Below, piece by piece: positions 6,819-23,688 of a DNA stretch of 64,000 bases. Each line of letters begins with the position of its first letter. The stretch's first letter is position 1. Under the pieces are notes generated by a model. That model had not been told where the DNA came from. It made no database searches and saw only the letters and a list, made by a program, of their open reading frames with translations. A program made the position numbers and the translations under genes. The stretch is from a virus (taxonomy: Duplodnaviria > Caudoviricetes): positions 1-64,000 of the IMG/VR virus record IMGVR_UViG_3300021400_000369. One strand, given 5' to 3'.

Positions 6819-6890
6819 ATTATCACCTTTATTTTTTTTGTTTTATATTTTTGATGAGGGAGAATATTAACTCCCAATAGTTTATTTATG

Positions 6891-7679: not shown

Positions 7680-7764
7680 ATTATCACCATTTAATTTTGT
7701 TTTATATATTTTTGATGAAGGAGAATATTAACTCCCAATAGTTCGACAGTCTTTATTCTATTAT

Positions 7765-8482: not shown

Positions 8483-9010
8483 TTATTCTCCTGGGCAAAT
8501 TGCTTTTCTATCATCTCTCATTTCTGATTTTTCGATGTATGGTTTTAATTCGTCATCTTGTTTACATTTTTTAATTACTGCGGTAAAGATATCTTCAATT
8601 TCTTTATCATTAAGATCTTCATACTTGTTTTCAATCATATCATTTACATATACGTCAAATTGGTTTTCAGGATATACATCATCTTCAAACCATTCTTTTT
8701 TGGCTATTCGGTATATGAAATTCGCTTTATACTCTTTTTCTTTTTCTTTAAAAAATGGATCATCTTCGTATATGTCTTTGGATAACATATCTTGGATATC
8801 ACTGCCAGATATTTTATCTAATAATTCATCAAATTTTTTAATTTCTTTTTGTGTCATTTTTCCTCTACCTACAACATAATTATAAAGGTTACTAAGACCA
8901 CTAATATGTCCTGCTGTGTATGCAGATCTCAATGCTTTGACAGTAAAAAGTGCGTCTGTTTTCCATTCTTTTCTCATTTGGTATTCTTGTTTGATTTCTT
9001 TTTTCTCCAT
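8483..9010 (-). CDS. Hypothetical protein
   Basis: Start corrected to MEKKEIK; the ORF-track N-terminus (STWRKSLKASKK) is read-through of repeat A. Confidence 0.7.
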   Translation of the reverse strand: MEKKEIKQEYQMRKEWKTDALFTVKALRSAYTAGHISGLSNLYNYVVGRGKMTQKEIKKFDELLDKISGSDIQDMLSKDIYEDDPFFKEKEKEYKANFIYRIAKKEWFEDDVYPENQFDVYVNDMIENKYEDLNDKEIEDIFTAVIKKCKQDDELKPYIEKSEMRDDRKAICPGE

Positions 9011-9088
9011 AATATCACCATTTTTTGTTTTTTTTGAGGCTTTTAGCGACTTCCTCCAGGTCGAATAATTCAACAGTTATTTATTACA

Positions 9089-9604
9089 TTATAATTTTTC
9101 ATATAATTCTTTGAGTTTTTCTTTTGAAAAATTATCTCCTTGTCCTTTCTTTTCATAATAGGCCCAAGTGTCTAAGTCAATGATAGTGTCATCACCATCT
9201 GTTTCAGAATATAGGAAAACACCTCCTACGTGGTGTATGTTTCCGTTCATATAGTGCTGAATATCACCAACACATAAGAAGTGTTGGCGAATATGCTTAC
9301 TGTTCTCTACCAACCATTCACATACTTTCTCAACCGCATTACGAGTGAGATCTTCTTCACATGATTCTATGATTTTATCTATAATTTCTTCTCTTGTTTT
9401 TTCCTTAGGCAGGGATTCCATATATCTCTTAGTCGCTTCATTTAATACTTTATCCCATATATCATCTGTGACATCTAATAGGATATCGTTCAAGTGGGTT
9501 TTATTCTCTTCAAATGATTTGCCAACACCAATTATTCCTCTTTTTTCCCATAGGGGAATGGTATCACTATTCAATATTTTATTTATAAGATTTTCGCAAT
9601 CCAT
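9089..9604 (-). CDS. Hypothetical protein
   Basis: 171 aa, RBS GGTGAT, preceded by repeat A. Confidence 0.7.
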   Translation of the reverse strand: MDCENLINKILNSDTIPLWEKRGIIGVGKSFEENKTHLNDILLDVTDDIWDKVLNEATKRYMESLPKEKTREEIIDKIIESCEEDLTRNAVEKVCEWLVENSKHIRQHFLCVGDIQHYMNGNIHHVGGVFLYSETDGDDTIIDLDTWAYYEKKGQGDNFSKEKLKELYEKL

Positions 9605-9680
9605 AACATCACCTTTTTTTGTTTTTATATTTTGAGGCTTTTCGCGACTTCCTCCAGGTCGAATAGTTCGTCAGTTGTTA

Positions 9681-10112
9681 TTAAAATCCTGTCCATTCAA
9701 TGGAATACTCATCATCAATTTCTTCCAATCCCTCTAAAAAGAACCTGATAATTTCATGATCCTCACTATAATCTGGGTCATTAAGGAAATATTTTCCTCC
9801 GTTTTTCATATTTTCTTTATCAAATTGATCAAGAACATATTTTTTGCCATCATAAAAACTACAATCATTCTCTCCATATTCAGAAAATCTCATTTCAATG
9901 ATTTGTTCAAAAATACCTTCATCAAGAATTGATGGAGGGATAAAGTATATTGTATTTTCATCTCCAATTTCTGTGTAAAAATAGAAATCAAGAATAGTGG
10001 AGATTTTTTCTACCTCTATCCCTTTTTCTTTTAATTCTGATATTTTTTCATCTACATCGCTTTTTAAAGCGACCATTTTTTTTCCATTTTCTTCTATAAT
10101 ATACTTTTCCAT
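9681..10112 (-). CDS. Hypothetical protein
   Basis: Start corrected to MEKYII; shares S.iDE.fiE.iI.MR..E with its neighbour 10134-10430. Confidence 0.7.
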   Translation of the reverse strand: MEKYIIEENGKKMVALKSDVDEKISELKEKGIEVEKISTILDFYFYTEIGDENTIYFIPPSILDEGIFEQIIEMRFSEYGENDCSFYDGKKYVLDQFDKENMKNGGKYFLNDPDYSEDHEIIRFFLEGLEEIDDEYSIEWTGF

Positions 10113-10133
10113 ATTACCACCATTCACTCATAT

Positions 10134-10430
10134 TTATCTTCTTCTGTTCCATCTGACATAAAATTTCTCACCGGCTTCTTTAAAAGCGTATTCATATGAA
10201 TCTATGTAGGATTTTTTATTTGGAAAAGCCTTTTCTAAAGCTTCCAAATTATTGTTGAAGAATTGTTTATCATCTTCATTTAATTCATAATCTTTGTTCG
10301 GTTTCATAGGTTCATCATAACGCATTTGAATCAATGGTTCGATGAACGCTTCATCAATAACACTTGATCCTATTTTAATAATTGCTTTCTTATTTTCATC
10401 TTTAAAAGTTATGTTCTGATGTAAATACAT
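10134..10430 (-). CDS. Hypothetical protein
   Basis: Start corrected to MYLHQN downstream of repeat A. Confidence 0.65.
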   Translation of the reverse strand: MYLHQNITFKDENKKAIIKIGSSVIDEAFIEPLIQMRYDEPMKPNKDYELNEDDKQFFNNNLEALEKAFPNKKSYIDSYEYAFKEAGEKFYVRWNRRR

Positions 10431-10541
10431 ATTATCACTTAATATTTTTTTGAGGCTTTTAGCGACATCCTCCAGGTCGAAAAATTCGTACAAATATCAA
10501 CAAACGAACACATCAACAAATACGCATTCGTTTGGTTACAA

Positions 10542-10736
10542 TTATTCTAATCCATTCCAATCCATGTAATGGGCTCTACGGTATTCATAATCTCTAATGT
10601 TCCGTTCAGCGATTGCTCTTTTGTATTCAGAATCTCTCGGTCCGTTGTCACACACACCGCATGTTCCGTACTCGCATTTCTCACATAACTTTGGGTTATG
10701 GTGCTCATTGTTTCCCCAGGTTTCATATTCTGTCAT
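10542..10736 (-). CDS. Small putative zinc-finger protein
   Basis: CEKC...CGVC, preceded by a family B element. Confidence 0.65.
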   Translation of the reverse strand: MTEYETWGNNEHHNPKLCEKCEYGTCGVCDNGPRDSEYKRAIAERNIRDYEYRRAHYMDWNGLE

Positions 10737-10810
10737 GATATCACTATTTTTTGTTTTTTATTATTGCATTTTTGATATGGGAGAATGCTAACTCCCAATA
10801 GTTCGACAGT

Positions 10811-12004
10811 CTAAATCATACGTGCGAGACACATAAGTTCTTTGTGGGATCGTTTGTTTAATATTCCTTCAAGATTTTTTATTGTCTCCTCGGTGATTCC
10901 ATTCTGATCTCTTGAGATGACAAGCATGATTCCGCTTAAATTAGAACTCAACCATTCATGAATTTGTTCCATGGCATATTCTTGGTCTTCTTCAAGTACT
11001 TCCAAAACATGGTCAATCGCCCATTCTCTGAATGTTTTCAGAATCTTGTCATATATTTCAGGGAACACCTCATTCCATATAATATTACGTAATTGGTCTT
11101 CTGTTAATTTTTCGAGAGCTGTACCATATAAGTCGTACTCATCATTAATCATTTCTACAATCTTATCCATTTCTTTTGTCTCATCCATTTTATCACCTAA
11201 ATCTAGTTTTAAATCATCAAACATTTCTGATATCTCATCAGCATCTTTTTCTTCATAACCATGTCCTTCAATACCCCAACTTGAGCTTGCGTAGAAATGG
11301 TTAAGATATTCTTTGAAAGTCATTGATTGAGGTATTGTATCATCTATATAGTCAGGATTTTTCATTTTTCCATAGTCATAGATTTTATTGTTTGAAATTT
11401 TCGCAACTCGATCAAATCCTGATATCTCATTATCAAATTTCAATAATTTTTTAATATTTTCTTCTGTGAGAGGTATTTTTTCAACTGTGTCGTAAATTCT
11501 GACATGTAATTCATGTCTTTTTCTTGTTTCTTCTTCCTTTTCCTTTTCAAAGACTGATTGGATTGGGGTTAAATCGTATCCCATCCAATGCTCCCAGCCA
11601 TTGTCTCCATCATCTTCTAAGCCGTTATCATCAATATCAATGGTAAAATATTTCAACTGTGGCTTTAATTCTCTTAGGTTTTCCAGTAATACTTCTTCCA
11701 ATACACATGCCTTGCCCATTTCGTATTCTTTTGGGTATCTAACATAGTCGCCTTTACGGTTCATTCTTGAACATGTTGATATGCTCAACCCAAGAGTGAT
11801 TTTATCGGTCTCGAAATCTTCAAAAACATCCAACTCATGAGGATAGAGTGGACCATCAATTTCAAATTTCTTTCCGTTCTTTATTCCATCTGAGATTTTC
11901 CAAGAGTCATCAAGAGGAAATGGACATGTGTCTTTGATGCATTGAATGGTTGAGTTTACATTTTCGATTTCTTTAATACTGTTTTTTGTCATTTTCATTT
12001 TCAT
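10811..12004 (-). CDS. Hypothetical protein (acidic, possibly a fusion of modules)
   Basis: 397 aa, RBS GAGGTGA; an internal GGTGATAAAATG at MDETKE suggests a fused former gene. Confidence 0.75.
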   Translation of the reverse strand: MKMKMTKNSIKEIENVNSTIQCIKDTCPFPLDDSWKISDGIKNGKKFEIDGPLYPHELDVFEDFETDKITLGLSISTCSRMNRKGDYVRYPKEYEMGKACVLEEVLLENLRELKPQLKYFTIDIDDNGLEDDGDNGWEHWMGYDLTPIQSVFEKEKEEETRKRHELHVRIYDTVEKIPLTEENIKKLLKFDNEISGFDRVAKISNNKIYDYGKMKNPDYIDDTIPQSMTFKEYLNHFYASSSWGIEGHGYEEKDADEISEMFDDLKLDLGDKMDETKEMDKIVEMINDEYDLYGTALEKLTEDQLRNIIWNEVFPEIYDKILKTFREWAIDHVLEVLEEDQEYAMEQIHEWLSSNLSGIMLVISRDQNGITEETIKNLEGILNKRSHKELMCLARMI

Positions 12005-12017
12005 TTTTTCACCTCAT

Positions 12018-12278
12018 TTATGAGAAATAAACCATATAGGTTTTTCCTTCTTCAATTTCTTCTTCAAGACATTTTATTAAAAATTCTATTAAAGGATTTT
12101 CAGAATATTGTCTTAAAAATTCTATTAACTCTTTCATCACATCGGAAGAATAAAAGTATCTCTTACATTCTTCTATTTCACCAAACTGTGAGAAGAATTT
12201 ATAAAATTCTTCTCTTTGACTGTAATTTATAATTTCAACGGCGTATTCTCCTTTTTCAATAGTTATTCCATAACTCAT
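12018..12278 (-). CDS. Hypothetical protein
   Basis: Start corrected to MSYGITI (RBS GGTGATAAT). Confidence 0.7.
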   Translation of the reverse strand: MSYGITIEKGEYAVEIINYSQREEFYKFFSQFGEIEECKRYFYSSDVMKELIEFLRQYSENPLIEFLIKCLEEEIEEGKTYMVYFS

Positions 12279-12289
12279 ATTATCACCAT

Positions 12290-12703
12290 TTACCAAATTT
12301 CACCAAGCATTGTAAGAAAAACTTCTTCGGGATAGGAGTCAAACTCACTTCTTGAATGATAATGATTTATTTTTTTAATATTTTTTGTCAATGTTTTTAA
12401 AAGTTCTAAATCTTCTTCGGACATATTGTTAATGCTCAACTGCCAAGTTCGATAAGGATTGTATCCTCCAATATCATCTCTTATGAATAATATACCTTCT
12501 CTCGGATCATCAGCATTGATTATCAATCCCAACTCACTTTTATATTGGGGATTTTTTTCTATATGATCCCTAACTTTTATGAAGATTTCTTCAGCTCTTC
12601 TTATGTTTTTCTCCTGATATAATTCAATCTCTTCTTTTACAATTTTTAATTCTTTTTCTAACTGTCTTTCTTTGTCTTTTAAGATTTTAATTTTCATAGT
12701 CAT
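12290..12703 (-). CDS. Hypothetical protein with N-terminal coiled coil
   Basis: Start corrected to MTMKIK downstream of repeat A. Confidence 0.7.
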   Translation of the reverse strand: MTMKIKILKDKERQLEKELKIVKEEIELYQEKNIRRAEEIFIKVRDHIEKNPQYKSELGLIINADDPREGILFIRDDIGGYNPYRTWQLSINNMSEEDLELLKTLTKNIKKINHYHSRSEFDSYPEEVFLTMLGEIW

Positions 12704-12805
12704 TTTATCACCATTTTTTTGTTTTTTTGAGGCTTTTAGCGACATCCTCCAGGTCGAAATAAAATTCGTATAAAATCTAATAAACGAACACAAACACAAA
12801 TACGT

Positions 12806-13444
12806 TTATTCGTCTTCATGTTGCATTTCACGTAATTTATTGAACAATTCACTCAGGCTTTCCTGATTGTGAATGGCTGATTTTTCAATATCATTCAACA
12901 ATTTTATATCTGCTTCGGAAATGTATTTATTTCCTGATTTGTCGTTTATCCAAGCTGTTTTGATTCCATATGCTTGAAGTTCTATGCTTTTTATAGCAAA
13001 ATACAGGGATCTTACATCCCATTTCAGTTGGACTATGTTGTCCAATCCTTTCTCTTCTTTCTTCTTATCCTCTTTATATGTTATTTTAACTGACATACTA
13101 TCTTCCTCTTCACAGAATTTAACTTCTAAATTATTATCCATTTCTTCAATTAGTTTTCCTGCATCATGAACATCTTCTTTGAAGTTTTCACCTTTCTCCA
13201 GATAATCGTGCAACTCAAACTCAATCTCGGGAATATCATCATCTACGAGCATACTATACACTTCAATATCTTTGAAATCTTCAATGGTCTTCTTGATTTC
13301 ATCCTGAAACGCTTCTGCTTGAATGTCACCATAATCACATTTGTCTTTAACTTCTGTGTTATGGTATATGCAATTCATGCATAAGTATTTTCTTTCACAT
13401 TCAGTAAAATTTTCTTTTAGACAAAGTTTACTATAATTCTTCAT
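12806..13444 (-). CDS. Hypothetical protein with N-terminal Cys cluster
   Basis: 212 aa, RBS GGTGG. Confidence 0.7.
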   Translation of the reverse strand: MKNYSKLCLKENFTECERKYLCMNCIYHNTEVKDKCDYGDIQAEAFQDEIKKTIEDFKDIEVYSMLVDDDIPEIEFELHDYLEKGENFKEDVHDAGKLIEEMDNNLEVKFCEEEDSMSVKITYKEDKKKEEKGLDNIVQLKWDVRSLYFAIKSIELQAYGIKTAWINDKSGNKYISEADIKLLNDIEKSAIHNQESLSELFNKLREMQHEDE

Positions 13445-13456
13445 AATACCACCTTC

Positions 13457-13618
13457 TTATTTTTCAACAATTTCTCCATTATCATATACTCTGTAAATGG
13501 ATACATCTCCACCTTGTGTAGTGACGAATTGCACATAATCACAACAAGTGCTTATGTCAAGTATTCTTTCAGCTCCAGTTTCCGCAAATAATATTTTTTT
13601 CGCTTTCTCGATTTTCAT
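13457..13618 (-). CDS. Small hypothetical protein (53 aa)
   Basis: MKIEKAKKILFAETG...NGEIVEK*, RBS GGTGAT, preceded by a family B element; not in the ORF track. Confidence 0.65.
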   Translation of the reverse strand: MKIEKAKKILFAETGAERILDISTCCDYVQFVTTQGGDVSIYRVYDNGEIVEK

Positions 13619-13691
13619 AATATCACCATTTTATTTTTTGTTATTGTATTTTTGATAAGGGAGAATACTAACTCCCAATCGTTCGACGGTC

Positions 13692-14057
13692 TTATTCAAA
13701 TTCTTTTTTCAAAAGCATAACTGAATTTCTAATTGAATCCATATAAGGATCCTGATTACATATTTCATCAGTCACACTTTCATTAATCTGATAAGCGTAT
13801 TCCTTTAACGCTTTTACATAGATTTCTGGAACATCTTCAGGTTTTGGTCTAAGAGGGATATCTTCCTTTTTCGGAGGAATTTGATTTCCTTGAAGATATT
13901 CTGTGATTGTGTAACAATCGTCATATCTTCTATTCCAAACTTCAATATTCAGGTTTAGGAGGTTCATAAACAATACATTATAATCTCCTAATGTAAATCT
14001 ATTAATTAGAGTAGCTACTAATTGGATACTCTCTATATTACATATATACATACTCAT
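13692..14057 (-). CDS. Hypothetical protein
   Basis: Start at MSMYIC, RBS GAGGTGAT. Confidence 0.7.
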   Translation of the reverse strand: MSMYICNIESIQLVATLINRFTLGDYNVLFMNLLNLNIEVWNRRYDDCYTITEYLQGNQIPPKKEDIPLRPKPEDVPEIYVKALKEYAYQINESVTDEICNQDPYMDSIRNSVMLLKKEFE

Positions 14058-14067
14058 TTTTATCACC

Positions 14068-14331
14068 TCATTCGGTGTATCCTTCTTCTATCAGATATTC
14101 TTCAAATTCTTCAGGAATATCCACATGGATATCTCCTGAGCTGTCTTCGCTAATGTGGAGATTCGCATCCCACAACATTTGCTTAATTGGTTCTTTCTTT
14201 TCTCGGTTGTCGTAATCAAATTCGATGAGCACCACCGGGGTTGGGAAGGCGGATGTTTCAACATAACATCTTACATCATTCTCAGCACCGAAGTCTTCGC
14301 ATAATTGATTCAATCTTTCGTAGTCTTCCAT
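14068..14331 (-). CDS. Hypothetical protein (acidic)
   Basis: Start corrected to MEDYERL, preceded by repeat A. Confidence 0.7.
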   Translation of the reverse strand: MEDYERLNQLCEDFGAENDVRCYVETSAFPTPVVLIEFDYDNREKKEPIKQMLWDANLHISEDSSGDIHVDIPEEFEEYLIEEGYTE

Positions 14332-14397
14332 GTTTATCACCATATTTTTTTGTTTTTTATTGAGGCTTTTAACGACGTCCTCCAGGTCGAAACAATT

Positions 14398-14868
14398 TTA
14401 TTTAATAAAAAAGTGTAATATATCTATTCGACCTCTTTCTTCTGAGTGGAAGTCAAGCATAAGATTCATTTGATCTCCTTCACAGATTTTTTCTTCTCTC
14501 ATTTTTTGAACGACCTTGAAAATATTACCTGTTTTCGGATTTCCGGTTATTTCAATCTTCTTATCCTTTTTTGTTATTGCAATGTCAGGATAATCATATG
14601 ACAACTTTTGTATCTTTTGAATCATGTTTTCTCTTTCCTTTTCTTTTTCCAGATTTTTTATCTTTGCTCCTTGTTGTAATAAAGTAGTCAATTCCTCTAA
14701 CCCTATCCAATCAGCGATATCATAATAGAACCATTCTCCAACGGCATTGTCTTCTGTTTCTAATATCGCTTCATAGTTTTTTTCTATGATTTCCAATAGT
14801 TTTTCTGTTGCAATGTTCATTCTCTTTTGGATGCCTTCTTTAACTTCTTCTAATGTCTTCTTTTCCAT
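14398..14868 (-). CDS. Hypothetical protein
   Basis: 156 aa, RBS GGTGAT, preceded by repeat A. Confidence 0.7.
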   Translation of the reverse strand: MEKKTLEEVKEGIQKRMNIATEKLLEIIEKNYEAILETEDNAVGEWFYYDIADWIGLEELTTLLQQGAKIKNLEKEKERENMIQKIQKLSYDYPDIAITKKDKKIEITGNPKTGNIFKVVQKMREEKICEGDQMNLMLDFHSEERGRIDILHFFIK

Positions 14869-14927
14869 ATTATCACCTAATGTTTTTTTGAGGCTTTTAA
14901 TGACGTCCTCCAGGTCATATTCAACTG

Positions 14928-15290
14928 TTATAATTTGTCAATCGCTTTACTGATTAATTCAAATTCCATGTCAATCATGATAAGTTCTTGTTCTAGTTCA
15001 AAAATTTCCTCACTTTTCTTGTCTTCACCTGTTTCCTTGTTTGTGTATTTTTGATCTTCTTTTATGAGTGATTTTGTTTTGGCATCTGTCATTTTCGCAA
15101 TGCCAAATGTTTCCTCGGTTTCCTGAGAAGTCATTCTTGCAATCTCAATTCGCATTTCCGCCTCCCTATGTTCCTTAGCTCGTTTGAATTTCCTATAAGC
15201 TTTTCGAGCTTCTCCTAATTCCTTTACAATTTTTCTTCTTCTTTTAATTATTCCTAATGTATCTTCAAAGATACTTTCTCTTGATACCAT
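14928..15290 (-). CDS. Hypothetical coiled-coil protein
   Basis: Start at MVSRES, preceded by repeat A. Confidence 0.7.
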   Translation of the reverse strand: MVSRESIFEDTLGIIKRRRKIVKELGEARKAYRKFKRAKEHREAEMRIEIARMTSQETEETFGIAKMTDAKTKSLIKEDQKYTNKETGEDKKSEEIFELEQELIMIDMEFELISKAIDKL

Positions 15291-15357
15291 ATTTTTCACC
15301 ATTTTTATTTTTTTTTTGAGGCTTTTAATGACGTCCTCCAGGTCATATTCAACAACT

Positions 15358-15570
15358 TTAGTTACTTTTTGGCAATATGATTGTAATCATTTGCTCATTT
15401 GTACCTAATATATCATCAAATGAACCATCATTGATGATATTTTTTTCATCAATAGTTTTGTATTGTGCATCAGGATCATATGAATCCATTACTGTAATTT
15501 CTCCATTTTCATTATTCTCATACACTTCAATAGCATATATTTTTTCATTTGCTTTTATTTTTAATATCAT
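15358..15570 (-). CDS. Small hypothetical protein
   Basis: 70 aa, RBS AGTGAT. Confidence 0.6.
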   Translation of the reverse strand: MILKIKANEKIYAIEVYENNENGEITVMDSYDPDAQYKTIDEKNIINDGSFDDILGTNEQMITIILPKSN

Positions 15571-15605
15571 TTTATCACTTTAGATATAATTTTCAATATT
15601 ACTTT

Positions 15606-16073
15606 TTACTCCTGTTTGAAATCATTCCAACAGGAAACGCTGATATAATCTCTGATATCAGCTGAATTATTTAACATCTCATTTTCGTCATAATAATTCT
15701 GCATACGTTCGCGGCCTTTTTTATTGAGGCGTATTATCTGCAGAGTTTCTTTGCCGTCATGATGAGAACATTCCATCATCAGATGGTTGTGTTTTTCAAC
15801 ATAAAATCTGACAATGTCAGCAGCTCTCATTCCCCAATCCAGGATTTCTCTCATATTAGAGAAGAACTCTGTCATACGACCTCGGTTATCAGATCCAAGA
15901 CCATACAAATTCATACTTCCAACACACAAGCCCGCATACTTGTGTTCATTTTCCTCAAAGATGTTATTGAAATTCTCAAGGATGATGTCATACAGACTAT
16001 CAATATCCATCTTTTCAATTGTTTCCTCATCAAACATGTCATAGACATAATTTGACCATAATAATTTCTTCAT
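15606..16073 (-). CDS. Hypothetical protein
   Basis: RBS GGAGG; start at 16073 or 16082. Confidence 0.7.
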   Translation of the reverse strand: MKKLLWSNYVYDMFDEETIEKMDIDSLYDIILENFNNIFEENEHKYAGLCVGSMNLYGLGSDNRGRMTEFFSNMREILDWGMRAADIVRFYVEKHNHLMMECSHHDGKETLQIIRLNKKGRERMQNYYDENEMLNNSADIRDYISVSCWNDFKQE

Positions 16074-16090
16074 CTTATTCATCCTCCATA

Positions 16091-16627
16091 TTATTCTATT
16101 TCATTAAGAATGTTTGTTAGGTCTTCATGAAACTTGATTGTCTTGCAACAAGATTTCTTTTTCGCCCATTCCTTGGCTTTTTGTGTTCGGATGTCTATAT
16201 AATGAAGACGATCATGAACTACTTCAACCCCATTGATTTCCCTAATCATTCTTCTAACGTCAGATTCAACCTTTCCAATGTTAATATGAATATAAGAGTT
16301 AAGACCTTCTTGATATAAGGTTACTCTTTCTATATAACTTAAATTTGCCTCTCTTAAGTCTCTTTCAACGTCTTCATATGTTTGTTGGTTTAAGGCATCT
16401 TTGAGTCTTTCATTGTTTATAAATACCGCTTTGGTGGAGTAAACAAATCCATACCAATTTTCATTGTTTTGTAATATTTTGGTTATCAATTCTTCCTTTA
16501 CGTATTTTTCAAAATCGTTTTCCCCACAATCCCAATAAATGACAATATGGTCTTTTTCAATTTTTCCTCTGACGTATTTCTTTGCTCCTAATTTTCTTAT
16601 TACGGTTTTAAGTTGGTCAAACTTCAT
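16091..16627 (-). CDS. Hypothetical protein, paralog of 19591-20148
   Basis: Shared MKFDQ...T.KAKEW.KKK..CK.IKF.ED...IL.E.E. Confidence 0.75.
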   Translation of the reverse strand: MKFDQLKTVIRKLGAKKYVRGKIEKDHIVIYWDCGENDFEKYVKEELITKILQNNENWYGFVYSTKAVFINNERLKDALNQQTYEDVERDLREANLSYIERVTLYQEGLNSYIHINIGKVESDVRRMIREINGVEVVHDRLHYIDIRTQKAKEWAKKKSCCKTIKFHEDLTNILNEIE

Positions 16628-16694
16628 TTAATCTACCTCATTTTTATTTTTTTTTGAGGCTTTTAACGACATCCTCAGGTCGTATTCAACAATC

Positions 16695-17216
16695 TTATTC
16701 CCAGTCGAAACCAGCTGGTTTCCAATATACTGAGTCAACTTTCACATCTCTCACATTTGTGAGGATTGTTTTTGATGCGGCACGATTTGGATAATCATGT
16801 TGCATAAAGATGAATACATTTTTTGTAATCCTGCTGATTTTTCTGACATCAGGCATAAACACTCTGTCATCACAACCATCGTTTACAATGACATTGTTGT
16901 GTCTGCCTGCTCTCAAAAGAACAATATCGTTCTCCATCACATCCTGTGTGATGTTTAGATTTGTTTTTTCGTGAACTGTCTTTACCTTCATTTCCTCAAC
17001 ATTTGTTACATTGCGGATACTAATATGTCCTCCACATTTTTCATTAGAATCGTTCACGGGATGAATCTCCCCTGTGACTTTTCCTTGATATGTATCTAAA
17101 TTAATCGCATCCGCTTTTACACAGATGTTGTTAATTTTGATATATTTTGGCTCAAAGACAACGTCTTTGGCATTTAGTTCACCTTTTTTTATTTTTTTAA
17201 GATATTTTTTTATCAT
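16695..17216 (-). CDS. Hypothetical protein
   Basis: Start corrected to MIKKYL, preceded by repeat A. Confidence 0.7.
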   Translation of the reverse strand: MIKKYLKKIKKGELNAKDVVFEPKYIKINNICVKADAINLDTYQGKVTGEIHPVNDSNEKCGGHISIRNVTNVEEMKVKTVHEKTNLNITQDVMENDIVLLRAGRHNNVIVNDGCDDRVFMPDVRKISRITKNVFIFMQHDYPNRAASKTILTNVRDVKVDSVYWKPAGFDWE

Positions 17217-17337
17217 AGTATCTACCTCATATGTTTTGTTTTTTTTTGAGGCTTTTAGCGACTTCCTCCAGGTCGTTGAAAAATTTCGTATAAAAACGAC
17301 CAAACGAACACAACAAAGAATACGTACTTATTGGTTA

Positions 17338-17934
17338 TTATTTTCTAAAGAGTTCATCAAACTCCGCAATTTTTTTATCTGTTTGACATCTGTGCTTACA
17401 TCTTTCTTTTTCGTTAATGCTTTCTTTGCTGATTTCTACCCATCCCAACCAATTATAGTCTTCATAACTGAAGTCTTCAACAGTAACCTCTCCTTCTATG
17501 TTACATATTTTATCTATTACATAGTTTGCAACATCTAAATATCCATTATTGCCATTGAAGACAATTTTTAATTTTGTCTCAATTCCTTTTCTTTTTCTTT
17601 CTATTTCACCCCTTTTTATCCATGTATTGTCTTCTAAGATTTCTAAGATTTCTTCATATGTTTTTGCTTCAATAAGCACTTTTATGAGATTATCTAAATG
17701 GATTTTAGGGATCCATCTTTCATCTTTGACGTGATAAGCGTCTGTTAATACCAATTCATTATTGAATGTGTTTTTTATATATTTTTTGAAATCTTGATTC
17801 TGTTCTTTATCAAGCCATTTCTGTCCTTCAACCTGTGCAAAATGCCATCTAAAGAAATTTCGATCTTCAATTATCTCTATAGTACCTAATTCCTTTACCT
17901 TTTCTTTAAATTCTTCAATAGTCATTTTTATCAT
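17338..17934 (-). CDS. Hypothetical protein, paralog of 18786-19328
   Basis: Shared MIKMTIEEFKEKV, LTDAY, WIPK and RC.HRC.TDK.IA.FDE. Confidence 0.75.
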   Translation of the reverse strand: MIKMTIEEFKEKVKELGTIEIIEDRNFFRWHFAQVEGQKWLDKEQNQDFKKYIKNTFNNELVLTDAYHVKDERWIPKIHLDNLIKVLIEAKTYEEILEILEDNTWIKRGEIERKRKGIETKLKIVFNGNNGYLDVANYVIDKICNIEGEVTVEDFSYEDYNWLGWVEISKESINEKERCKHRCQTDKKIAEFDELFRK

Positions 17935-18007
17935 AATATCACCATTTTTTTATTTTCTTTTGAGGCTTTTAGCGACATCCTCCAGGTCGAAACAGTTCGT
18001 ATAAAAT

Positions 18008-18718
18008 TTATTCTTTTTCATTTCCTATGTTGTTGAATGCTTCAATGATAAATTCTGATTCTCCACATTCATCATAATAGTCTTTGATTCTTTGTTTCAA
18101 ATTTTTGCAGAATTCATCACTTGATTGGGCTTTGAAGTCGGTTAAGTCCATGTTGTGGATTATGACAATTTTACCAAACGCTTCAAATACTTGATGTTTG
18201 AATTCATCAGCTTTGTTTAGGGCGCAGAGTTTTTTGTATCCCACGCATAGTTCTTCGATCAGATCGGCATCATCCAAACAGTCATCGATTTTATTCAGGA
18301 CTTGTTTGACTTTGAAATCCTTCCATTTCTGATCATCTTCGGTTTTGAGATTCTTCAATGTAGGAATTCTCATGTTCCTGACATCTTCATTTTCAATCAG
18401 GAATACAACTTCTGGCTTGTATAAGTCAAAGCCGTATAGTTTATTCATAATCATCCAAATATCTGATAATACCGGATATTCTTCTCCAAAACTGTTTCTA
18501 CATTCTTCTCTGGCTTTTGAATACATTTCTTGGAACTCTTCCTGGGTGAAGAGTTTTTTATGTGTGAAGATCGCGTAATTGATTACACATTCTGAGATGT
18601 TTTCTTCCAAGTACACACCATAGGTGTGCATCTCTTCTTCACTATTCAGCAGTTTTTTCAAGCATTTTTTACCACATTCATCTAAATTGTTATAGATTTT
18701 GTATACATTGTTTTCCAT
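18008..18718 (-). CDS. Hypothetical protein
   Basis: Start corrected to MENNVY, preceded by repeat A. Confidence 0.7.
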   Translation of the reverse strand: MENNVYKIYNNLDECGKKCLKKLLNSEEEMHTYGVYLEENISECVINYAIFTHKKLFTQEEFQEMYSKAREECRNSFGEEYPVLSDIWMIMNKLYGFDLYKPEVVFLIENEDVRNMRIPTLKNLKTEDDQKWKDFKVKQVLNKIDDCLDDADLIEELCVGYKKLCALNKADEFKHQVFEAFGKIVIIHNMDLTDFKAQSSDEFCKNLKQRIKDYYDECGESEFIIEAFNNIGNEKE

Positions 18719-18785
18719 ATTATCACCTAATATTTGTTTGAGGCTTTTAGCGACATCCTCCAGGTCGAAACAGTTCGTATAAAAA

Positions 18786-19328
18786 CTATAAGTCAAATAT
18801 CTCATCGAATTTAGCTATCGCCTTATCTGTTTCACATCGGTGTCGACATCTGACTTTTTCATCAATATCTTTTTTACTGATTACGAGTTCGAGTCTGTAA
18901 ATTTCTACATCAATGTTTTCATTTTCTTCGAGTACACCTGCTACACATCTTTTTGCTGTTAATGCTATATCACTCCTTTCAAAATGAATTTTTGCTTGTT
19001 GAAAGATATCGTCTTTCTTTTTAATCTCAGTTTCTCTTATAAATGGTGACTGAGGGTTTATTTCTTCATAACTCTCAGCACGTATAATGTGCTGTACGAT
19101 TCTTTCGATTTCTGTTTTTGGAATCCATACATTACATTTATTAGGTTCGTCCACTAAATACGCATCTGTTAAAATTAGGTTGTAACTTAATTGTTCAACT
19201 ATGTAGTCCTTTAAATCTTTGTTCTGGCCTTTTGCTTGCCAGAAATAATATCCATTTCTTTTTATAAATGCCAGATTGTCTGTCTTTTCTACTTTTTCTT
19301 TGAACTCTTCTATTGTCATTTTTATCAT
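18786..19328 (-). CDS. Hypothetical protein, paralog of 17338-17934
   Basis: Motifs shared with the paralog; preceded by repeat A. Confidence 0.75.
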   Translation of the reverse strand: MIKMTIEEFKEKVEKTDNLAFIKRNGYYFWQAKGQNKDLKDYIVEQLSYNLILTDAYLVDEPNKCNVWIPKTEIERIVQHIIRAESYEEINPQSPFIRETEIKKKDDIFQQAKIHFERSDIALTAKRCVAGVLEENENIDVEIYRLELVISKKDIDEKVRCRHRCETDKAIAKFDEIFDL

Positions 19329-19394
19329 ACTATCACTATTCTTTTTGTTTTTTGTTGAGGCTTTTACCGACTTCCTCCAGGTCGTGTTCGACGG

Positions 19395-19589
19395 TTATTT
19401 GAAGGTCACTTCAAGGCGGCCTTCGTTGTACTCATGAGAAAAGAAAATCCCATTAAGATCTAAGTCATTAAGGAGAAGTTCCTTTTCCTCGTCATCTATA
19501 TGGCAGACCAGGGATCCGCCATTAATCGCATAAGCACCTGTGTAGTGCTTAACAATTTCATCAATTTTCACAAAGGTTTCAAAATCCAT
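19395..19589 (-). CDS. Small hypothetical protein
   Basis: Start MDFETF, RBS GGTGA. Confidence 0.6.
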   Translation of the reverse strand: MDFETFVKIDEIVKHYTGAYAINGGSLVCHIDDEEKELLLNDLDLNGIFFSHEYNEGRLEVTFK

Positions 19590-19590
19590 C

Positions 19591-20148
19591 TTATTCACCT
19601 TCTTCTACTTCTTTAAGGATTTCATTGAAATCTTCAATGAATTTTATTTCTTTGCAACTCTCTTTTTTCTTCTCCCATTCTTTTGCTTTTTCAGTTGAGA
19701 GGAAGAGGGTATTGGTCAAACGGTCTTTACGGTTTAGTTCTATTCCATCCATCCCTTCTATAGCGTCTTTTACCATATTATATACATAATGGTCCCTAAA
19801 ATACATACCAATACATTTATCACTAACATCAGTGATTGAATCTGTTACATAATCGACTTCTCCCTTGTCAAATGCTGCTGTCATCTCTCCATATGTTGGA
19901 AGTTCCAACACCTGTTTCAGTTTTGTTACATTACAACAGATTAAAACGACTCCATCATTTTGTCTAACACATTCTTCTTCAATGTTTCTCATCACATCAT
20001 ATATTTTTGTACGAATTACACTTCTAAGGGAATCCCCCTTAGCTTTTGGGTTAATGTACATATAATCTTTGTCAATTCTTGAGTTCTCGGATACATATCC
20101 TTGTTCTTGTAATTTCTTCATTATTTTTGTTGCTTGGTCAAACTTCAT
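19591..20148 (-). CDS. Hypothetical protein, paralog of 16091-16627
   Basis: Start corrected to MKFDQATK, preceded by repeat A. Confidence 0.75.
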   Translation of the reverse strand: MKFDQATKIMKKLQEQGYVSENSRIDKDYMYINPKAKGDSLRSVIRTKIYDVMRNIEEECVRQNDGVVLICCNVTKLKQVLELPTYGEMTAAFDKGEVDYVTDSITDVSDKCIGMYFRDHYVYNMVKDAIEGMDGIELNRKDRLTNTLFLSTEKAKEWEKKKESCKEIKFIEDFNEILKEVEEGE

Positions 20149-20211
20149 TTTATCACCATTTTTTTTATTTTTTGAGGCTTTTAACGACTTCCTCCAGGTC
20201 GCGTTCACATT

Positions 20212-20499
20212 TTACCAGCAGATATCCTCAGTGTGTTGGTACACTCCACCAACGTAACCGGTATCTCTAAATTTATATCCTTTTTGAATGAGGATATCTC
20301 TTAACTCTGGGACATCCTCATATTTTCCTTTATAAAGGAAAAAGAAACCACCATACTGTGGTTTGCTGGCAAAACAAACTCTGGTTCTACCTTTAGATGC
20401 CGCTTCTCTAATCTCTTCTTCTACACGTTTCAAAGCAGCTTGAATAATTTCTTCTCTACCGTTTTCGTTACTGATTCTTCTTGCTTCACTTGCATCCAT
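20212..20499 (-). CDS. Hypothetical protein
   Basis: 95 aa, RBS GAGGT, preceded by repeat A. Confidence 0.7.
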   Translation of the reverse strand: MDASEARRISNENGREEIIQAALKRVEEEIREAASKGRTRVCFASKPQYGGFFFLYKGKYEDVPELRDILIQKGYKFRDTGYVGGVYQHTEDICW

Positions 20500-20568
20500 T
20501 CTATCTACCTCTTTTTTATTTTTTTTGAGGCTTTTAACGACATCCTCCAGGTCGCATTCAACTGTTAT

Positions 20569-20745
20569 TTAAAATCTATTACTATCTCCCTCAGGTACTG
20601 TGATTAAACAGAATCCAAGCACCATCATCAGGGTGCTTATGAATAATCCGGTGTAAAGGAGTGGGTTATCCCCAATGAGGAAGATTAATCCCCCGAAGAT
20701 GAGTCCAATCAGACTCATTGTCTCCGGTCTTGGGAGGAATATCAT
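20569..20745 (-). CDS. Small two-TM membrane protein (58 aa)
   Basis: MIFLPRPETMSLIGLIFGGLIFLIG...LMMVLGFCLITV...*, ATGA overlap with the upstream gene; not in the ORF track. Confidence 0.6.
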   Translation of the reverse strand: MIFLPRPETMSLIGLIFGGLIFLIGDNPLLYTGLFISTLMMVLGFCLITVPEGDSNRF

Positions 20746-20972
20746 AAGTATTCCCCCATTTCTCTGATTAATGAGTTGATCCAGCCGGTCAGTCCGGCTT
20801 TCTCAAATTCATCAATCTCAACTTCAAATCCCATGCCGGTGTAGTACGGCATGTTTCCTCTGACTTTTGCAAGCACTTTGCGTGCTTTCTCAGCTGCTTT
20901 GCTTGCGGCTCTCTGTTCAACTGCTTCTTCGATTCCATTAAATTTAATAACTGCAACTTTTCTGCTTGTCAT
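20742..20972 (-). CDS. Hypothetical protein
   Basis: Start corrected to MTSRKV, preceded by repeat A. Confidence 0.65.
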   Translation of the reverse strand: MTSRKVAVIKFNGIEEAVEQRAASKAAEKARKVLAKVRGNMPYYTGMGFEVEIDEFEKAGLTGWINSLIREMGEYL

Positions 20973-21041
20973 TATCTCTACCTTTTTTTGTTTTTTTGTT
21001 GAGGCTTTTAACGACATCCTCCAGGTCGAATAGTTCATCAG

Positions 21042-21254
21042 TCAATATTCAATTTTAAGTCTTATGAAGTTTTCAAAACGGGTGAAGTATATTTTCTTTA
21101 TTTCTTCAACTTTACTCACTTCTTCCATCAACTTACATATTGCTTTAGATTCTCCTCGGATTTCAATTCCGTGGGAGAATCCATCATAATAATAACCTTT
21201 AATACAAAGGTCATTATCTGAACATATTTTTTTAATTTTTTCTTCGGTATTCAA
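21042..21254 (-). CDS. Small hypothetical protein
   Basis: TTG start after GGTGAT. Confidence 0.6.
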   Translation of the reverse strand: MNTEEKIKKICSDNDLCIKGYYYDGFSHGIEIRGESKAICKLMEEVSKVEEIKKIYFTRFENFIRLKIEY

Positions 21255-21262
21255 AGTATCAC

Positions 21263-21499
21263 CTATCCAAGAGACTCATATATCAATTCTTTGATTAGAT
21301 CGTCAAGAGTCATTTCTGATTCAAATGATTCCTTGAATCCTTTAAGGATTCTTTCCGGGGTACAGGCTTCTATCAAGCCATCACATTTAACCCCGGTGAT
21401 TTTGGAGTTCGCAATGATGCTGTCTCTAGCATCATCACATTTCTTCTTTAACTCTAGATATTCATCAGTAGTTAAAATTATTTCAATCTTCACTTTCAT
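21263..21499 (-). CDS. Small hypothetical protein
   Basis: 78 aa, RBS GGAGG. Confidence 0.6.
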   Translation of the reverse strand: MKVKIEIILTTDEYLELKKKCDDARDSIIANSKITGVKCDGLIEACTPERILKGFKESFESEMTLDDLIKELIYESLG

Positions 21500-21695
21500 T
21501 TTTTATTTCCTCCATTTCTTTGAGGAACTCTGGGGAGAGTTCTAAGTAACTCTCCATTTGGTTCAAAAATTCATCGAATAAATCCCATGCTTTGGCTTTG
21601 TCATTTTCTATTTCGTCAAGTTTATCTTGACAAGCGAAAATTTCATCCATACTGACACATACATGTTGTTTGTCATCTATCCATTTTTGTTCCAT
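21483..21695 (-). CDS. Small acidic hypothetical protein
   Basis: 70 aa, RBS GGTG, preceded by a family D element. Confidence 0.6.
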   Translation of the reverse strand: MEQKWIDDKQHVCVSMDEIFACQDKLDEIENDKAKAWDLFDEFLNQMESYLELSPEFLKEMEEIKNESED

Positions 21696-21883
21696 ATTTT
21701 ACACCTTTTTATAATCATGCTTCATCAGGCACGTTTCATGCCGAATCATCAGCGGAAAAAATTCAACAATCTTTTTACATACGAATGATCATGGTTCATC
21801 ATTCAAATTCACCATAACCATTCATTCGCCCAAACCCACACCACACACCATTTTTTCGCGTCCTCCATTCAACCACTCACCCC

Positions 21884-21909
21884 TGATGTCACAATTTTTT
21901 GTGACATCA
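21884..21909. promoter_or_regulatory. Perfect 11-bp inverted repeat
   Basis: TGATGTCACAA-TTTT-TTGTGACATCA. Confidence 0.4.
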
Positions 21910-21934
21910 AGGGAACATTTTGATAATCAATCTA

Positions 21935-22109
21935 CTACATATTATCACCATTTAATTTTGTTTTATATTTTTGATAAGGGAGAATATCAACTCCCAAGTT
22001 CGACAGTCTCATTCTTCCACAACCATTGTTTATCCTACATATTATCACCATTTAATTTTGTTTTATATTTTTGATAAGGGAGAATATCAACTCCCAAGTT
22101 CGACAGTCT
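21935..22109 (-). repeat. 75-bp identical direct repeat at 100-bp period (family B element + RBS + ATG-TAG)
   Basis: 21935-22009 equals 22035-22109. Confidence 0.9.
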
Positions 22110-23386: not shown

Positions 23387-23466
23387 TTTTATCACCATTG
23401 TTATCATTGGATTTTTAAGACTCACCATGTCAAATCCTTGTTTTAATGGACATTATATGCAATAAA

Positions 23467-23511: not shown

Positions 23512-23580
23512 AATTGGAGAGGGAGTCTTTCGACTCCCCTTAGATTGATGTGCTAGGGGGGTTTGCTGAGACCCCCTAAA

Positions 23581-23681: not shown

Positions 23682-23688
23682 TTATCCA

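Follow-up and report, generated by a model that had tools for sequence, protein, structure and literature searches.

A compact, covarying H-type pseudoknot motif repeated between genes of a Caudoviricetes virus and recurring in unrelated phages, RNA viruses and tmRNA genes

Fifteen near-identical copies of a short element, here called family A, lie between genes in a 64,000-nt stretch (hereafter the window) of the genome of a Caudoviricetes virus of a rumen methanogen, and covariation indicates that the element is a compact H-type RNA pseudoknot, formed on the sense strand by two interleaved stems, S1 and S2. The same motif occurs in unrelated phages, in phage tRNA arrays, in picorna-like RNA viruses and in two tmRNA genes, and its presence in unrelated viruses as well as in tmRNA makes it look like a general, uncatalogued building block of viral mRNAs. 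We tentatively predict that the knot serves as a self-contained boundary module of the mRNA.

A consensus search allowing at most three mismatches returned 14 minus-strand matches and no others, where 100 shuffles gave an expectation of 0.00, and a regular expression tolerating a one-nucleotide deletion added the copy at 16656-16682, so that the family comprises 15 copies, 14 of 28 nt and one of 27 nt (Table 1). A covariance model scored all 15 at 35.8-48.3 bits, while the next-best match in the window reached only 13.9 bits (E 0.13), and it found no family A match in the remainder of the 97-kb genome outside 9036-21028; nor did the regular expression find a plus-strand copy across the whole 97,018-nt genome. 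The copies are scattered, with a start-to-start spacing of 353-2277 nt and no tandem array, and the minus strand is the sense strand of the genes around them. S1 is CGAC/GUCG in 13 of the 15 copies and UGAC/GUCA in copies 14890 and 15318, S2 is GAGG/CCUC throughout, and the remaining variation is limited to motif positions 13, 18 and 19 and to one G that copy 16656 lacks. A preliminary description of this DNA had listed 15 near-identical elements between 9036 and 21028, with a compensated S1 in the same two copies, an invariant S2, and other variation restricted to L2, the start of L3 and a single deletion, and all of this was borne out. It had also attributed spurious ORF N-termini to the element, correctly: TTG- and GTG-started ORFs in the ORF list run across the copies, as at 8981-9073 (minus strand), where LNYSTWRKSLKASKKTKNGDI is followed by the true start MEKKE.

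Table 1. Family A copies and conserved upstream boxes in the window (distances in nt from the preceding stop codon and to the following ATG).
Feature	Position	Strand	Stop before	ATG after	Bits	Basis
Family A copy	21001..21028	-	13	28	48.3	pattern search + covariance model
Family A copy	20527..20554	-	14	27		pattern search + covariance model
Family A copy	20174..20201	-	10	25		pattern search + covariance model
Family A copy	19357..19384	-	10	28		pattern search + covariance model
Family A copy	18740..18767	-	18	21		pattern search + covariance model
Family A copy	17962..17989	-	18	27		pattern search + covariance model
Family A copy behind long upstream box	17248..17275	-	62	31		pattern search + covariance model
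Family A copy, 1-nt deletion (27 nt)	16656..16682	-	12	28	35.8	regular expression + covariance model
Family A copy, compensated S1 UGAC/GUCA	15318..15345	-	12	27		pattern search + covariance model
Family A copy, compensated S1 UGAC/GUCA	14890..14917	-	10	21		pattern search + covariance model
Family A copy	14362..14389	-	8	30		pattern search + covariance model
Family A copy behind long upstream box	12729..12756	-	49	25		pattern search + covariance model
Family A copy behind long upstream box	10452..10479	-	62	21		pattern search + covariance model
Family A copy, L3 = CGAAAAG	9634..9661	-	19	29		pattern search + covariance model
Family A copy	9036..9063	-	25	25		pattern search + covariance model
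Conserved 45-nt box (D15) abutting copy 10452	10480..10524	-				repeat comparison
Same conserved box (D15) before copy 12729	12760..12804	-				repeat comparison
Same conserved box (D15) before copy 17248	17280..17324	-				repeat comparison

The layout of the element is S1 (CGAC/GUCG), L1 (CUG), S2 (GAGG/CCUC), L2 (A-N) and L3 (N-UAAAAG), and comparison across genomes argues that this fold is real and acts as RNA. Among 36 distinct cores drawn from many unrelated sequences 96.9% of the cells pair and 7 of the 8 pairs change on both sides, values that none of 500 shuffles reached, which upholds the pseudoknot proposed at the outset. A pattern that left S2 free gave 82 matches in metagenomes, 63 of which pair at all four positions, where our own arithmetic, (6/16)^4, puts the chance expectation at about 2%; at least 11 different complementary S2 versions were seen, including the G·U-containing AGAU/GUUU, AGAC/GUUU and GGGA/UCUC, and a pattern that left S1 free yielded GGAC/GUCC, AGAC/GUCU and CGUC/GACG. 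Both stems thus covary, G·U pairs included. The letters of L1 (CUG), A12 and UAAAAG were constant in every instance (for the L3 of copy 9634 see Table 1), most scans having fixed them by construction; with L1 free, CUG was recovered in nine of nine matches, and with L3 free, N-UAAAAG was recovered in 9 of 12, the other three being GC-rich and probably chance matches. The calculated nested folding of the two 4-bp helices is weak (-3.7 to -4.6 kcal/mol, z-scores near 0), and hence the stability of the knot would have to come from tertiary contacts. No Rfam 15 family, preQ1 riboswitches included, overlaps a copy in the window at E up to 10; in 41 loci of other genomes, scanned at E up to 10 or 1, the sole matches were tmRNA at L064 and L129; and a string search of the literature found no paper describing the 28-nt motif.

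Within the window the knot is part of an intergenic module of fixed order: the upstream stop codon, the knot, some 15 nt consisting almost wholly of A, a Shine-Dalgarno (SD) site and the ATG. The stop codon lies 8-25 nt before the knot in 12 copies and 49-62 nt before it in three, the SD-preceded ATG follows 21-31 nt downstream, and the 15 nt after the knots are 84% A versus 44% further downstream. The conserved upstream box D15 is, by its position, a candidate promoter region of an operon start. The genes behind the knots encode ORFs of 76-236 aa, and 21 of 22 cassette proteins are orphans without a PHROG family. When the gaps among 30 genes were compared between 6.1 and 21.1 kb, all 19 gaps of at least 59 nt were found to carry the module (15 family A, 4 family B), and none of the 11 gaps of at most 35 nt contained one. 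Family B had been described as sharing fold and slot with family A despite an unrelated sequence, and it does so: all six of its copies pair in 100% of cells, with two pairs changing on both sides, and one fold in one intergenic slot is therefore served by two unrelated sequences.

Outside this virus, exact-pattern scans of public collections found the motif as a single copy in most genomes. In three dicistronic picorna-like lineages it lies 7-12 nt after the ORF1 stop, the motif-bearing RNA genomes encoding 3C protease, RdRP_1 and Rhv capsid; the stop codon of an upstream ORF precedes the knot by 4-18 nt in most phage and RNA-virus lineages, and what follows is either a start codon or an IRES-type, AUG-less ORF2, whose first Met in the RNA viruses is at about codon 149 or codons 17-22. 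In phage tRNA arrays the knot stands directly behind tRNA genes, in some with only a terminator following, and at least four phage lineages carry it behind tRNA-Gln(CUG), away from any ORF. The exact motif also constitutes PK1 of two metagenomic tmRNA genes, where it aligns to the PK1 columns of Rfam RF00023 (49.9 bits, E 9.9e-18 for one match). Only some tmRNA lineages carry this exact version, and the covariance model matched no further genome among 151 cyanobacterial genomes, tmRNAs included, at E <=0.001. The strong A-rich leader is confined to the virus of the window, the 34 other lineages being mildly G-poor after the knot (G share of the following 15 nt, 19% vs 25%). No protein family common to the motif-bearing viruses was found, and the DUF2828 RNA-binding-type protein of the window was present in 0 of 10 motif-bearing virus records.

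As a boundary module, the knot would fold alone directly behind the preceding cistron or, alternatively, would form the very 5' end of transcripts starting at the conserved upstream box, a location at the end of primary transcripts that the position of the box suggests. It would keep the leader and the ribosome-binding site single-stranded, independent of the upstream sequence and of ribosomes terminating upstream, and may give the cassette RNA, whether primary or processed, a structured 5' end and thereby slower 5'-end-dependent decay. A structural role fits the use of the knot independently of context, in tRNA arrays and as tmRNA PK1, and the proposed action parallels that of PK1, whose accepted role is structural and which a stable hairpin can replace. 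Part of a study in E. coli reports that disrupting a 5'-leader pseudoknot lowered mRNA accumulation (PMC9458429). As a by-product, the near-identical modules could act as sites of recombination through which related viruses reshuffle their gene cassettes: in relatives the sequence flanking a copy is conserved on one side and replaced on the other, which amounts to cassette mosaicism (locus L109 against window copies 19357 and 16656, L108 against 14362), and contigs from other runs join one copy to another, a weak hint only. What counts against a boundary role is that a plain insulator or end-cap would not need invariant loops and that the strong A-rich leader is confined to this virus; the weak computed nested folding energy would likewise speak against it.

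The main rival, possible though rather unlikely, is direct docking: the knot would bind some conserved face of the small subunit, or of the complete ribosome, and increase local ribosome loading on the single strand beside it, serving Bacteria, Archaea and Eukarya alike as a mini-IRES domain or standby site. S2 together with G7 is, in this virus, GGAGG paired to CCUC, a masked Shine-Dalgarno/anti-Shine-Dalgarno look-alike, which a ribosome terminating upstream could open and where it could stay for the next cistron. The knot does precede a translation start region in most lineages (SD and ATG in phages, the dicistronic intergenic region, the tmRNA resume region), and its invariant loops fit a universal partner that recognises them; taken together with the G before it, S2 is often purine-rich in prokaryotic-virus mRNAs (GGAGG, GAAGG, GGAGA, GGGGA) and not so in RNA-virus, tRNA and tmRNA contexts, a contrast drawn from a small sample. 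In the RNA viruses, moreover, the distance from the ORF1 stop is that of PKIII in compact IGR IRESs, and parts of two accounts describe this PKIII as a small, strongly conserved H-type knot near the ORF1 stop which, in type 6e, matters for ribosome binding and 80S formation, as seen from mutations with compensatory rescue (PMC10516663; bioRxiv 10.1101/2024.04.17.590008). The published type 6f PKIII consensus, however, as given in part of the latter source, is unlike the motif (bioRxiv 10.1101/2024.04.17.590008), and an IGR IRES is stated in part of another to recruit ribosomes in E. coli without tertiary structure (PMC9458429). Docking also fits poorly with the phage knots behind tRNA-Gln(CUG), with start codons that lie 21-66 nt downstream and have an SD of their own, and with the replaceability of PK1: according to portions of two papers, tagging requires PK1, yet a small stable hairpin can substitute for it, and PK1 is therefore credited with keeping the tRNA-like and mRNA-like parts from misfolding with each other (PMC3968760; PMC4236655).

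Decidedly unlikely is the broader proposition of a universal ribosome-handling module, recognised by the conserved ribosome core of all three domains and recruited independently, by which tmRNA PK1, phage and archaeal-virus mRNAs and picorna-like IRESs would all place or hold the ribosome at the start region. If true, trans-translation, prokaryotic internal initiation and factor-less IRES initiation would be connected through one structural element.

We consider it very unlikely that the knot binds a virus or host protein or a small ligand which co-regulates the 15 cassettes, the knot acting as a translational operator, or that it is a decoy titrating a host RNA-binding enzyme. A set of 15 near-identical copies would lend itself to coordinated control or titration, the invariant loops are aptamer-like, families A, B and C might each stand for a separate regulatory class, and the order S1, L1, S2, L2, S1', A-rich L3, S2' is one that we take to resemble the preQ1-I riboswitch type. 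Against this, the motif is mostly single-copy in other genomes, a replicase polyprotein and a capsid are all that the small RNA viruses encode, neither DUF2828 nor any other protein family is shared, nearly all cassette proteins are orphans, no riboswitch or other Rfam family matches at E up to 10, and an expression platform is lacking because the SD lies outside the knot. The earlier suggestion that the copies titrate a host factor as pseudo-antitoxins is not supported, for the copies are dispersed, PADLOC detected no ToxN/AbiQ-like or other defence protein among 38 virus proteins (the sole match was a DNA methyltransferase), and the motif also occurs in picorna-like RNA viruses and tmRNA, settings in which a decoy for a bacterial RNase makes no sense; the fixed place between stop codon and start site points to a role in cis. 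Finally, a DNA-level element, that is, a class-specific promoter, operator or recombination site whose inverted repeats are protein half-sites and whose RNA folding is incidental, is extremely improbable, for although the repeats lie upstream of genes as phage promoter classes do, the change from CGAC/GTCG to TGAC/GTCA is one whose symmetry a palindromic site would preserve as well, and related viruses recombine at the copies, the interleaved repeats covary with G·U pairs and in one orientation only, the 12 copies only 8-25 nt after a stop codon leave no room for a leader and an archaeal BRE/TATA, whose TATA box lies about 26 nt upstream of the transcription start, and the same motif is found in RNA genomes, tmRNA and hosts with unrelated transcription machineries.

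Small pseudoknots have so far been known family by family, as tmRNA PK1, IRES domains or the T4 gene 32 leader, whereas here a single 28-nt knot, whose loops are invariant and whose stems covary freely, is seen in four settings: before 15 archaeal-virus genes and unrelated phage genes, behind phage tRNAs, at the picorna-like ORF1/ORF2 junction and, in some bacteria, as tmRNA PK1. If confirmed, the knot would add a new RNA part, very compact, portable and independent of the host in its function, a possible insulator or leader element for synthetic operons, and a first handle on the signals for gene expression in methanogen viruses, almost unstudied so far. It also provides a specific example on which to ask whether transfer or convergence accounts for the occurrence of such motifs.

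Among known systems, ToxI-type RNAs share with family A that they are repeated, small and pseudoknot-forming. ToxI-type repeats, about 34-45 nt long, stand in tandem directly before the toxin gene, whereas family A copies are 353-2277 nt apart, each before a different gene; with neither head-to-tail repeats nor, among the 38 virus proteins searched with PADLOC, a ToxN/AbiQ-type endoribonuclease gene, assignment to the type III antitoxins is not supported. PeSLs of T4-like phages combine a promoter and a stem-loop at the DNA and transcription level, as mobile regulatory cassettes. They and the family A modules are alike repeated short regulatory units beside small orphan genes in a plastic early region where recombination shuffles genes, but the conserved core of family A is an RNA pseudoknot shared with RNA viruses. 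The leader of phage T4 gene 32 stabilises the mRNA and nucleates regulator binding. Its mRNA 5'-leader pseudoknot, mentioned in part of one source (PMC10690425), resembles family A in being a leader knot followed by an unstructured tract and the start site; it is, however, a single-gene autoregulatory site of unrelated sequence, bound by its own product, whereas the 15 family A copies precede unrelated orphan genes and have no known binder.

The PKIII of type 6e/6f IRESs is a conserved H-type knot of 25-28 nt just 3' of the ORF1 stop, before an AUG-less ORF2, and the motif occupies a PKIII-like place in the three picorna-like lineages, a likeness of place and fold that holds for the RNA-virus instances only. 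PKIII lies within PKII, with PKI and an AUG-less start coming after it, whereas the window, which belongs to a DNA virus, has no PKI or PKII and uses SD and ATG. With regard to tmRNA, PK1 sits inside the tmRNA gene, between the tRNA-like domain/helix 2 and the tag reading frame, and a short single strand connects it to the resume codon of a tag ORF that has no start codon, whereas the window knots lie outside any such gene, before the SD and ATG of ordinary ORFs; ARAGORN detected neither tRNA nor tmRNA in the window, and cmscan of 8500-27000 gave no tmRNA match at E up to 10. The virus has an archaeal host, unlike tmRNA-bearing bacteria, and to our knowledge archaea have neither tmRNA nor SmpB. 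The defining form of PK1, an H-type knot with interleaved stems and an A-rich third loop, is nevertheless seen in family A, both by covariation and in the RF00023 alignment, and the two further share an S1 3' strand with a terminal CG, a UAAAA(A/G) L3 and a single-stranded, A-rich stretch before the coding region.

Family A, a 28-nt H-type RNA pseudoknot (hereafter the knot) arranged as S1, L1, S2, L2, S1', L3 and S2', is present in 15 copies, all on the minus strand between 9036 and 21028, and nowhere else in the 97,018-nt genome. A sequence search with the consensus, at no more than 3 mismatches, returned 14 of them and nothing in 100 shuffles, and the extra copy (16656–16682) appears once a 1-base deletion is allowed, one G having been lost there. 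A covariance model of the family gave the 15 copies 35.8–48.3 bits and everything else in the window at most 13.9 bits, with no match in the 33 kb of genome outside the window. The consensus search and the covariance model bear out the 15 near-identical pseudoknot elements proposed in the preliminary description. Its further details, namely an S1 of CGAC/GUCG compensated to UGAC/GUCA at 14890 and 15318, an S2 of GAGG/CCUC constant in all copies, and the deletion at 16656, were likewise found, and the other differences are confined to motif positions 13, 18 and 19. Nested structures predicted for four copies had weak energies (z-scores between -0.33 and 1.43), which is uninformative for a pseudoknot.

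All copies are sense-oriented relative to the genes. Twelve start 8–25 nt past the stop codon of the preceding ORF, while those at 10452, 12729 and 17248 start 49–62 nt past it, each behind a conserved 45-nt box that may be a promoter. A start codon with a Shine–Dalgarno (SD) site lies 21–31 nt downstream of every copy, and the first 15 nt past the knot are 84% A. Spurious N-termini had been attributed to the element, and the TTG- or GTG-started ORFs that read STWRKSLKASKK through it are indeed artefacts, the real start coming after it. A readthrough or frameshift signal was discarded, since the knot-to-ATG distances do not keep to one frame. Among the 30 genes in 6.1–21.1 kb, a 59–121-nt gap separates 19 from the gene before, and every such gap contains a single module (family A in 15 gaps; family B, another repeated intergenic element of this virus, in 4), and the remaining 11 lie within 35 nt of their neighbour and have none; the intergenic space is therefore essentially the module itself, and the modules head cassettes of 1–3 genes. 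A short box common to both knot families (ACUGUCGAAC; ACAGUUGAAU is one of its variants) lies 0–12 nt ahead of their copies, often directly past the upstream stop codon. In related contigs, one flank of a family A copy is conserved and the other replaced, and in contigs from other runs one copy is joined to another, a weaker observation. Judged from these sequences, the modules also act as recombination joints between cassettes, a secondary evolutionary effect.

The genome is that of a tailed virus; from 30 kb onward its plus strand encodes a terminase, a portal and a head protein or protease, and small, mostly orphan genes form a minus-strand block running from about 29 kb down to 1; 21 of 22 proteins of the family A region have no PHROG family. 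The plus-strand ORF at 42419–54649 encodes an unusually long tape measure protein of 4076 aa, which disposes of an N4-like reading in which the elements would be phage-RNA-polymerase promoters beside a giant virion polymerase. Three further large ORFs (1153, 1325 and 2145 aa) lie at genome positions 78076–92505 (fetched as L001/L002) and gave no PHROG or Pfam match, the first as scanned over its N-terminal 641 aa. The most likely host is a member of the Methanobacteriales living in the rumen, because Methanobacterium virus PhiF1 is the best or only named relative of the large terminase (30%) and the head protein (36% identity), a 356-aa protein (genome 69,888–70,958) carries pseudomurein-binding repeats (PF09373, E 3.5e-14), viral DNA is present in gut and bovine-gut metagenome runs, and the ribosome-binding sites read GGTGAT. 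No family A copy was found in the first 40 kb of PhiF1. A DUF2828/DUF7788 protein, assigned to PHROG family 850 (named RNA-binding protein; E 4.7e-127), is encoded at 26632–28203 of the window on the plus strand, opposite to the modules, in a GC-rich island (0.47 vs. about 0.33).

The slot of family A is shared by other sequences (see the table). Family B has the layout GGGAG, UUA, AUAUU/GUAUU/GCAUU, CUCCC, an 8-nt A-rich loop and AAUAU/AAUAC/AAUGC; all cells pair, with two-sided changes in two pairs and one change from G-C to G·U. Its pairing and placement uphold the earlier proposal that it has the topology and slot of family A with an unrelated sequence. A seventh GGGAG...CUCCC hairpin, at 23521–23538, has flanks that differ from those of family B, and in a 100-nt tandem duplication at 21935–22131 each unit holds a family B module, followed by an SD site and an ATG directly followed by TAG, a start-stop mini-ORF. 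Family C, a third repeated element, has the GAC/GUC stem and UAAAA loop in common with family A, carries an SD-like GGUGA in its loop and is located ahead of an SD site and ATG; the family A covariance model does not detect it in the window. The minihelix of the 118-nt repeat consists of an acceptor-like stem (GCCUGU/ACAGGC) and a T-arm (CAUGG-UUCGAUU-CCAUG), and in one copy a family C knot follows directly; no tRNA was called in it by ARAGORN or Rfam, and the repeat may be a processing signal. A further hairpin is flanked on both sides by CUGAUGA, resembling C/D-box or k-turn signals.

Repeated elements of the window outside family A
Feature	Positions	Strand	Description
Family B, hairpin part	6858-6875, 7719-7736, 10779-10796	-	H-type pseudoknot in the slot of family A
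Family B, hairpin part	13659-13676, 21978-21995, 22078-22095	-	H-type pseudoknot in the slot of family A
Family C	1618-1635, 23409-23426, 25251-25267, 25830-25847, 26220-26237	-	GAC, AUGGUGA, GUC, UUAAAAA, UCC
118-nt repeat	23568-23685, 24496-24613, 25264-25381	-	Ends in a tRNA-like minihelix
Hairpin GGCAUG-3 nt-YGUGCC	21707-21753, 23937-23983, 25647-25693	-	Three copies, each ahead of SD and ATG

Viral and metagenome collections were scanned by exact-pattern matching, with S1, S2, L1 or L3 freed in turn. Twelve viral contigs contain the GAGG/CCUC version, but only 2 of 185,579 species genomes do, both times in small contigs of cyanobacterial assemblies. Freeing S1 gave 17 viral loci, in which the stem switches to GGAC/GUCC, AGAC/GUCU or CGUC/GACG, with three 3-of-4 cases. 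Freeing S2 gave 30 viral loci and 77 metagenome loci with 82 matches; S2 pairs at all four positions in 63 of the 82, at three in 5, at two in 7 and at one in 7, where full pairing is expected in about 2% of random sequence by our own arithmetic. Half of the distinct S2 combinations (11/22) are fully paired, with CUGA/UCAG as a further one from the viral set; the poorly pairing matches come from a small number of families that have other evident structures or GC-rich surroundings, and are taken as chance. From 88 distinct instances (core plus 6-nt flanks), 9 with fewer than three of the four positions paired in one or other stem were removed, and the 79 kept comprise 36 distinct cores. In these, 96.9% of cells pair, a percentage raised by the filter, and two-sided changes, which the filter leaves unaffected, occur in 7 of 8 pairs, G·U and U·G being present as well; the covariation values were approached by none of 500 shuffles and by no slid register. 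The invariance of the loops is partly by construction, since they were fixed in most patterns. With L1 free, CUG was retained in 9 of 9 matches; with L3 free, N-UAAAAG was retained in 9 of 12, the other three being GC-rich and probably due to chance. These nine stem largely from a single phage family, which makes the test a weak one. A loop-free scan with both stems fixed gave at least 118 rows, mostly GC-rich chance matches, with four true motifs among the matches listed. Second, divergent knots of like design adjoin the motif (L148, about 1536–1560; L052 and L090, just past it), one with a shorter L1 (CGAG, UCG, UUA, CUCG, UUAAAAA, CGA) and another with a long L2 insertion, and the exact-pattern scans therefore undercount the family. 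A literature string search with 11-nt motif pieces returned nothing on this RNA motif, by titles among the matches listed; a large survey of viral structured RNAs has been published (PMC10690425).

Outside the window, 155 instances with at least 3 of 4 pairs per stem fall into 46 flank-based groups. In a freshwater-type phage family, the knot lies 5–12 nt past a small ORF and 22–23 nt ahead of a conserved 290-aa orphan gene, and in other phages it is followed, after 18–66 nt, by an AGGAG-type site and ATG. In two contigs, a TGnTATACT box, read by eye 9–11 nt upstream, would have the transcript begin with the knot. In phage tRNA arrays, it lies 0–11 nt past tRNA-Gln(CUG) in at least four contexts (L041/L102, L048/L149, L052 and L085), ahead of tRNA-Leu in L025/L027, and within an array of 10–12 tRNAs in L147. 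In L149 and L085, nothing follows but a conserved linker of 17 nt and a hairpin that resembles a terminator and has a U run, which suggests a small stable RNA. Two of the 41 other-genome loci scanned with Rfam are tmRNAs (RF00023), namely L064 (49.9 bits, E 9.9e-18) and the truncated L129 (37.1 bits, E 3.3e-12), and in both the motif aligns to PK1, the first pseudoknot of tmRNA, just ahead of the A-rich linker and tag frame. Of 151 cyanobacterial genomes, the motif model matched only the one it started from; cells therefore seldom carry the exact version, and it does not represent the general form of tmRNA.

The knot also occurs in three RNA-virus lineages, in contigs of about 8–10 kb whose ORF1 encodes 3C protease and RdRP_1 and whose ORF2 encodes an Rhv capsid. 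It begins 7–12 nt past the ORF1 stop (in G008/L044, a fourth contig with an RdRp, 15 nt past it), and ORF2 opens about 90–100 nt later without an AUG for about 149 codons, or 181–218 nt later. In L274 an open frame begins at the knot with an Ala codon; its relatives L279, L280 and L282 are open in a different frame over roughly the first 30 codons, so the real start of ORF2 lies about 90–100 nt downstream of the knot, and a codon-anticodon mimic directly ahead of the AUG-less ORF2 was rejected.

Across these contexts, the knot is an autonomous RNA fold that comes directly after a completed unit (a stop codon or a tRNA) and directly before a region needing accessibility, be it a leader with an SD site, an IRES or the reading frame of tmRNA. 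Its hosts have no known specific RNA-binding factor in common apart from universal machines; the DUF2828/phrog_850 protein was found in none of 10 other motif-bearing virus records. In experiments covered by a review, PK1 proved necessary for tagging yet replaceable by a small stable hairpin, and it is regarded as stabilising the junction of the tRNA-like and mRNA-like regions and preventing misfolding (PMC3968760; PMC4236655). From the autonomous fold, its placement, the breadth of hosts and this hairpin-replaceable role of PK1, we tentatively propose that family A functions as a boundary module of the mRNA. The minimal knot would fold by itself, would shield the A-rich leader and SD site from upstream pairing and from terminating ribosomes, and would supply every cassette RNA with a structured 5' end; where a tRNA precedes it, cleavage at the tRNA 3' end would create an RNA whose 5' end starts with the knot. 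Such a module fits the direct succession of a tRNA or tRNA-like element and a knot, in phages and at family C here. The fold would matter over the sequence, because two or three unrelated sequences (A, B and perhaps C) occupy one slot.

The main rival, that the knot docks the ribosome directly, is possible but doubtful. The RNA-virus instances lie where compact IGR IRESs carry PKIII, a small conserved H-type pseudoknot relevant to ribosome binding, and docking would be in keeping with the constant loops and with the GGAGG of S2, which is SD-like; the tRNA-only contexts, the replaceability of PK1, and an IGR IRES activity in E. coli that is independent of structure argue against it. It is improbable that the knot serves a specific regulator or ligand or acts as a decoy; the pseudo-antitoxin suggested in the preliminary description is not supported, as family A lacks the defining features of a type III antitoxin and no protein of its region matches a defence model. 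A DNA-level role is very improbable, and the motif must act as RNA because the genomes of the RNA viruses are RNA.

With respect to known systems, family A matches no Rfam 15 family, and tmRNA (L064, L129) is the only one to match any instance scanned; L148, from a GP20-type context, had no match. Family A looks like tmRNA PK1 and, by analogy, may work like it, but it is not a member, since the virus sequence contains no tmRNA, the copies precede ordinary genes and the probable host is an archaeon. Type 6e/6f IRESs have, in their compact PKIII, a knot of similar size, place and conservation. Family A is a small pseudoknot of leaders or intercistronic regions, and it is spread more widely across virus types than would be expected.
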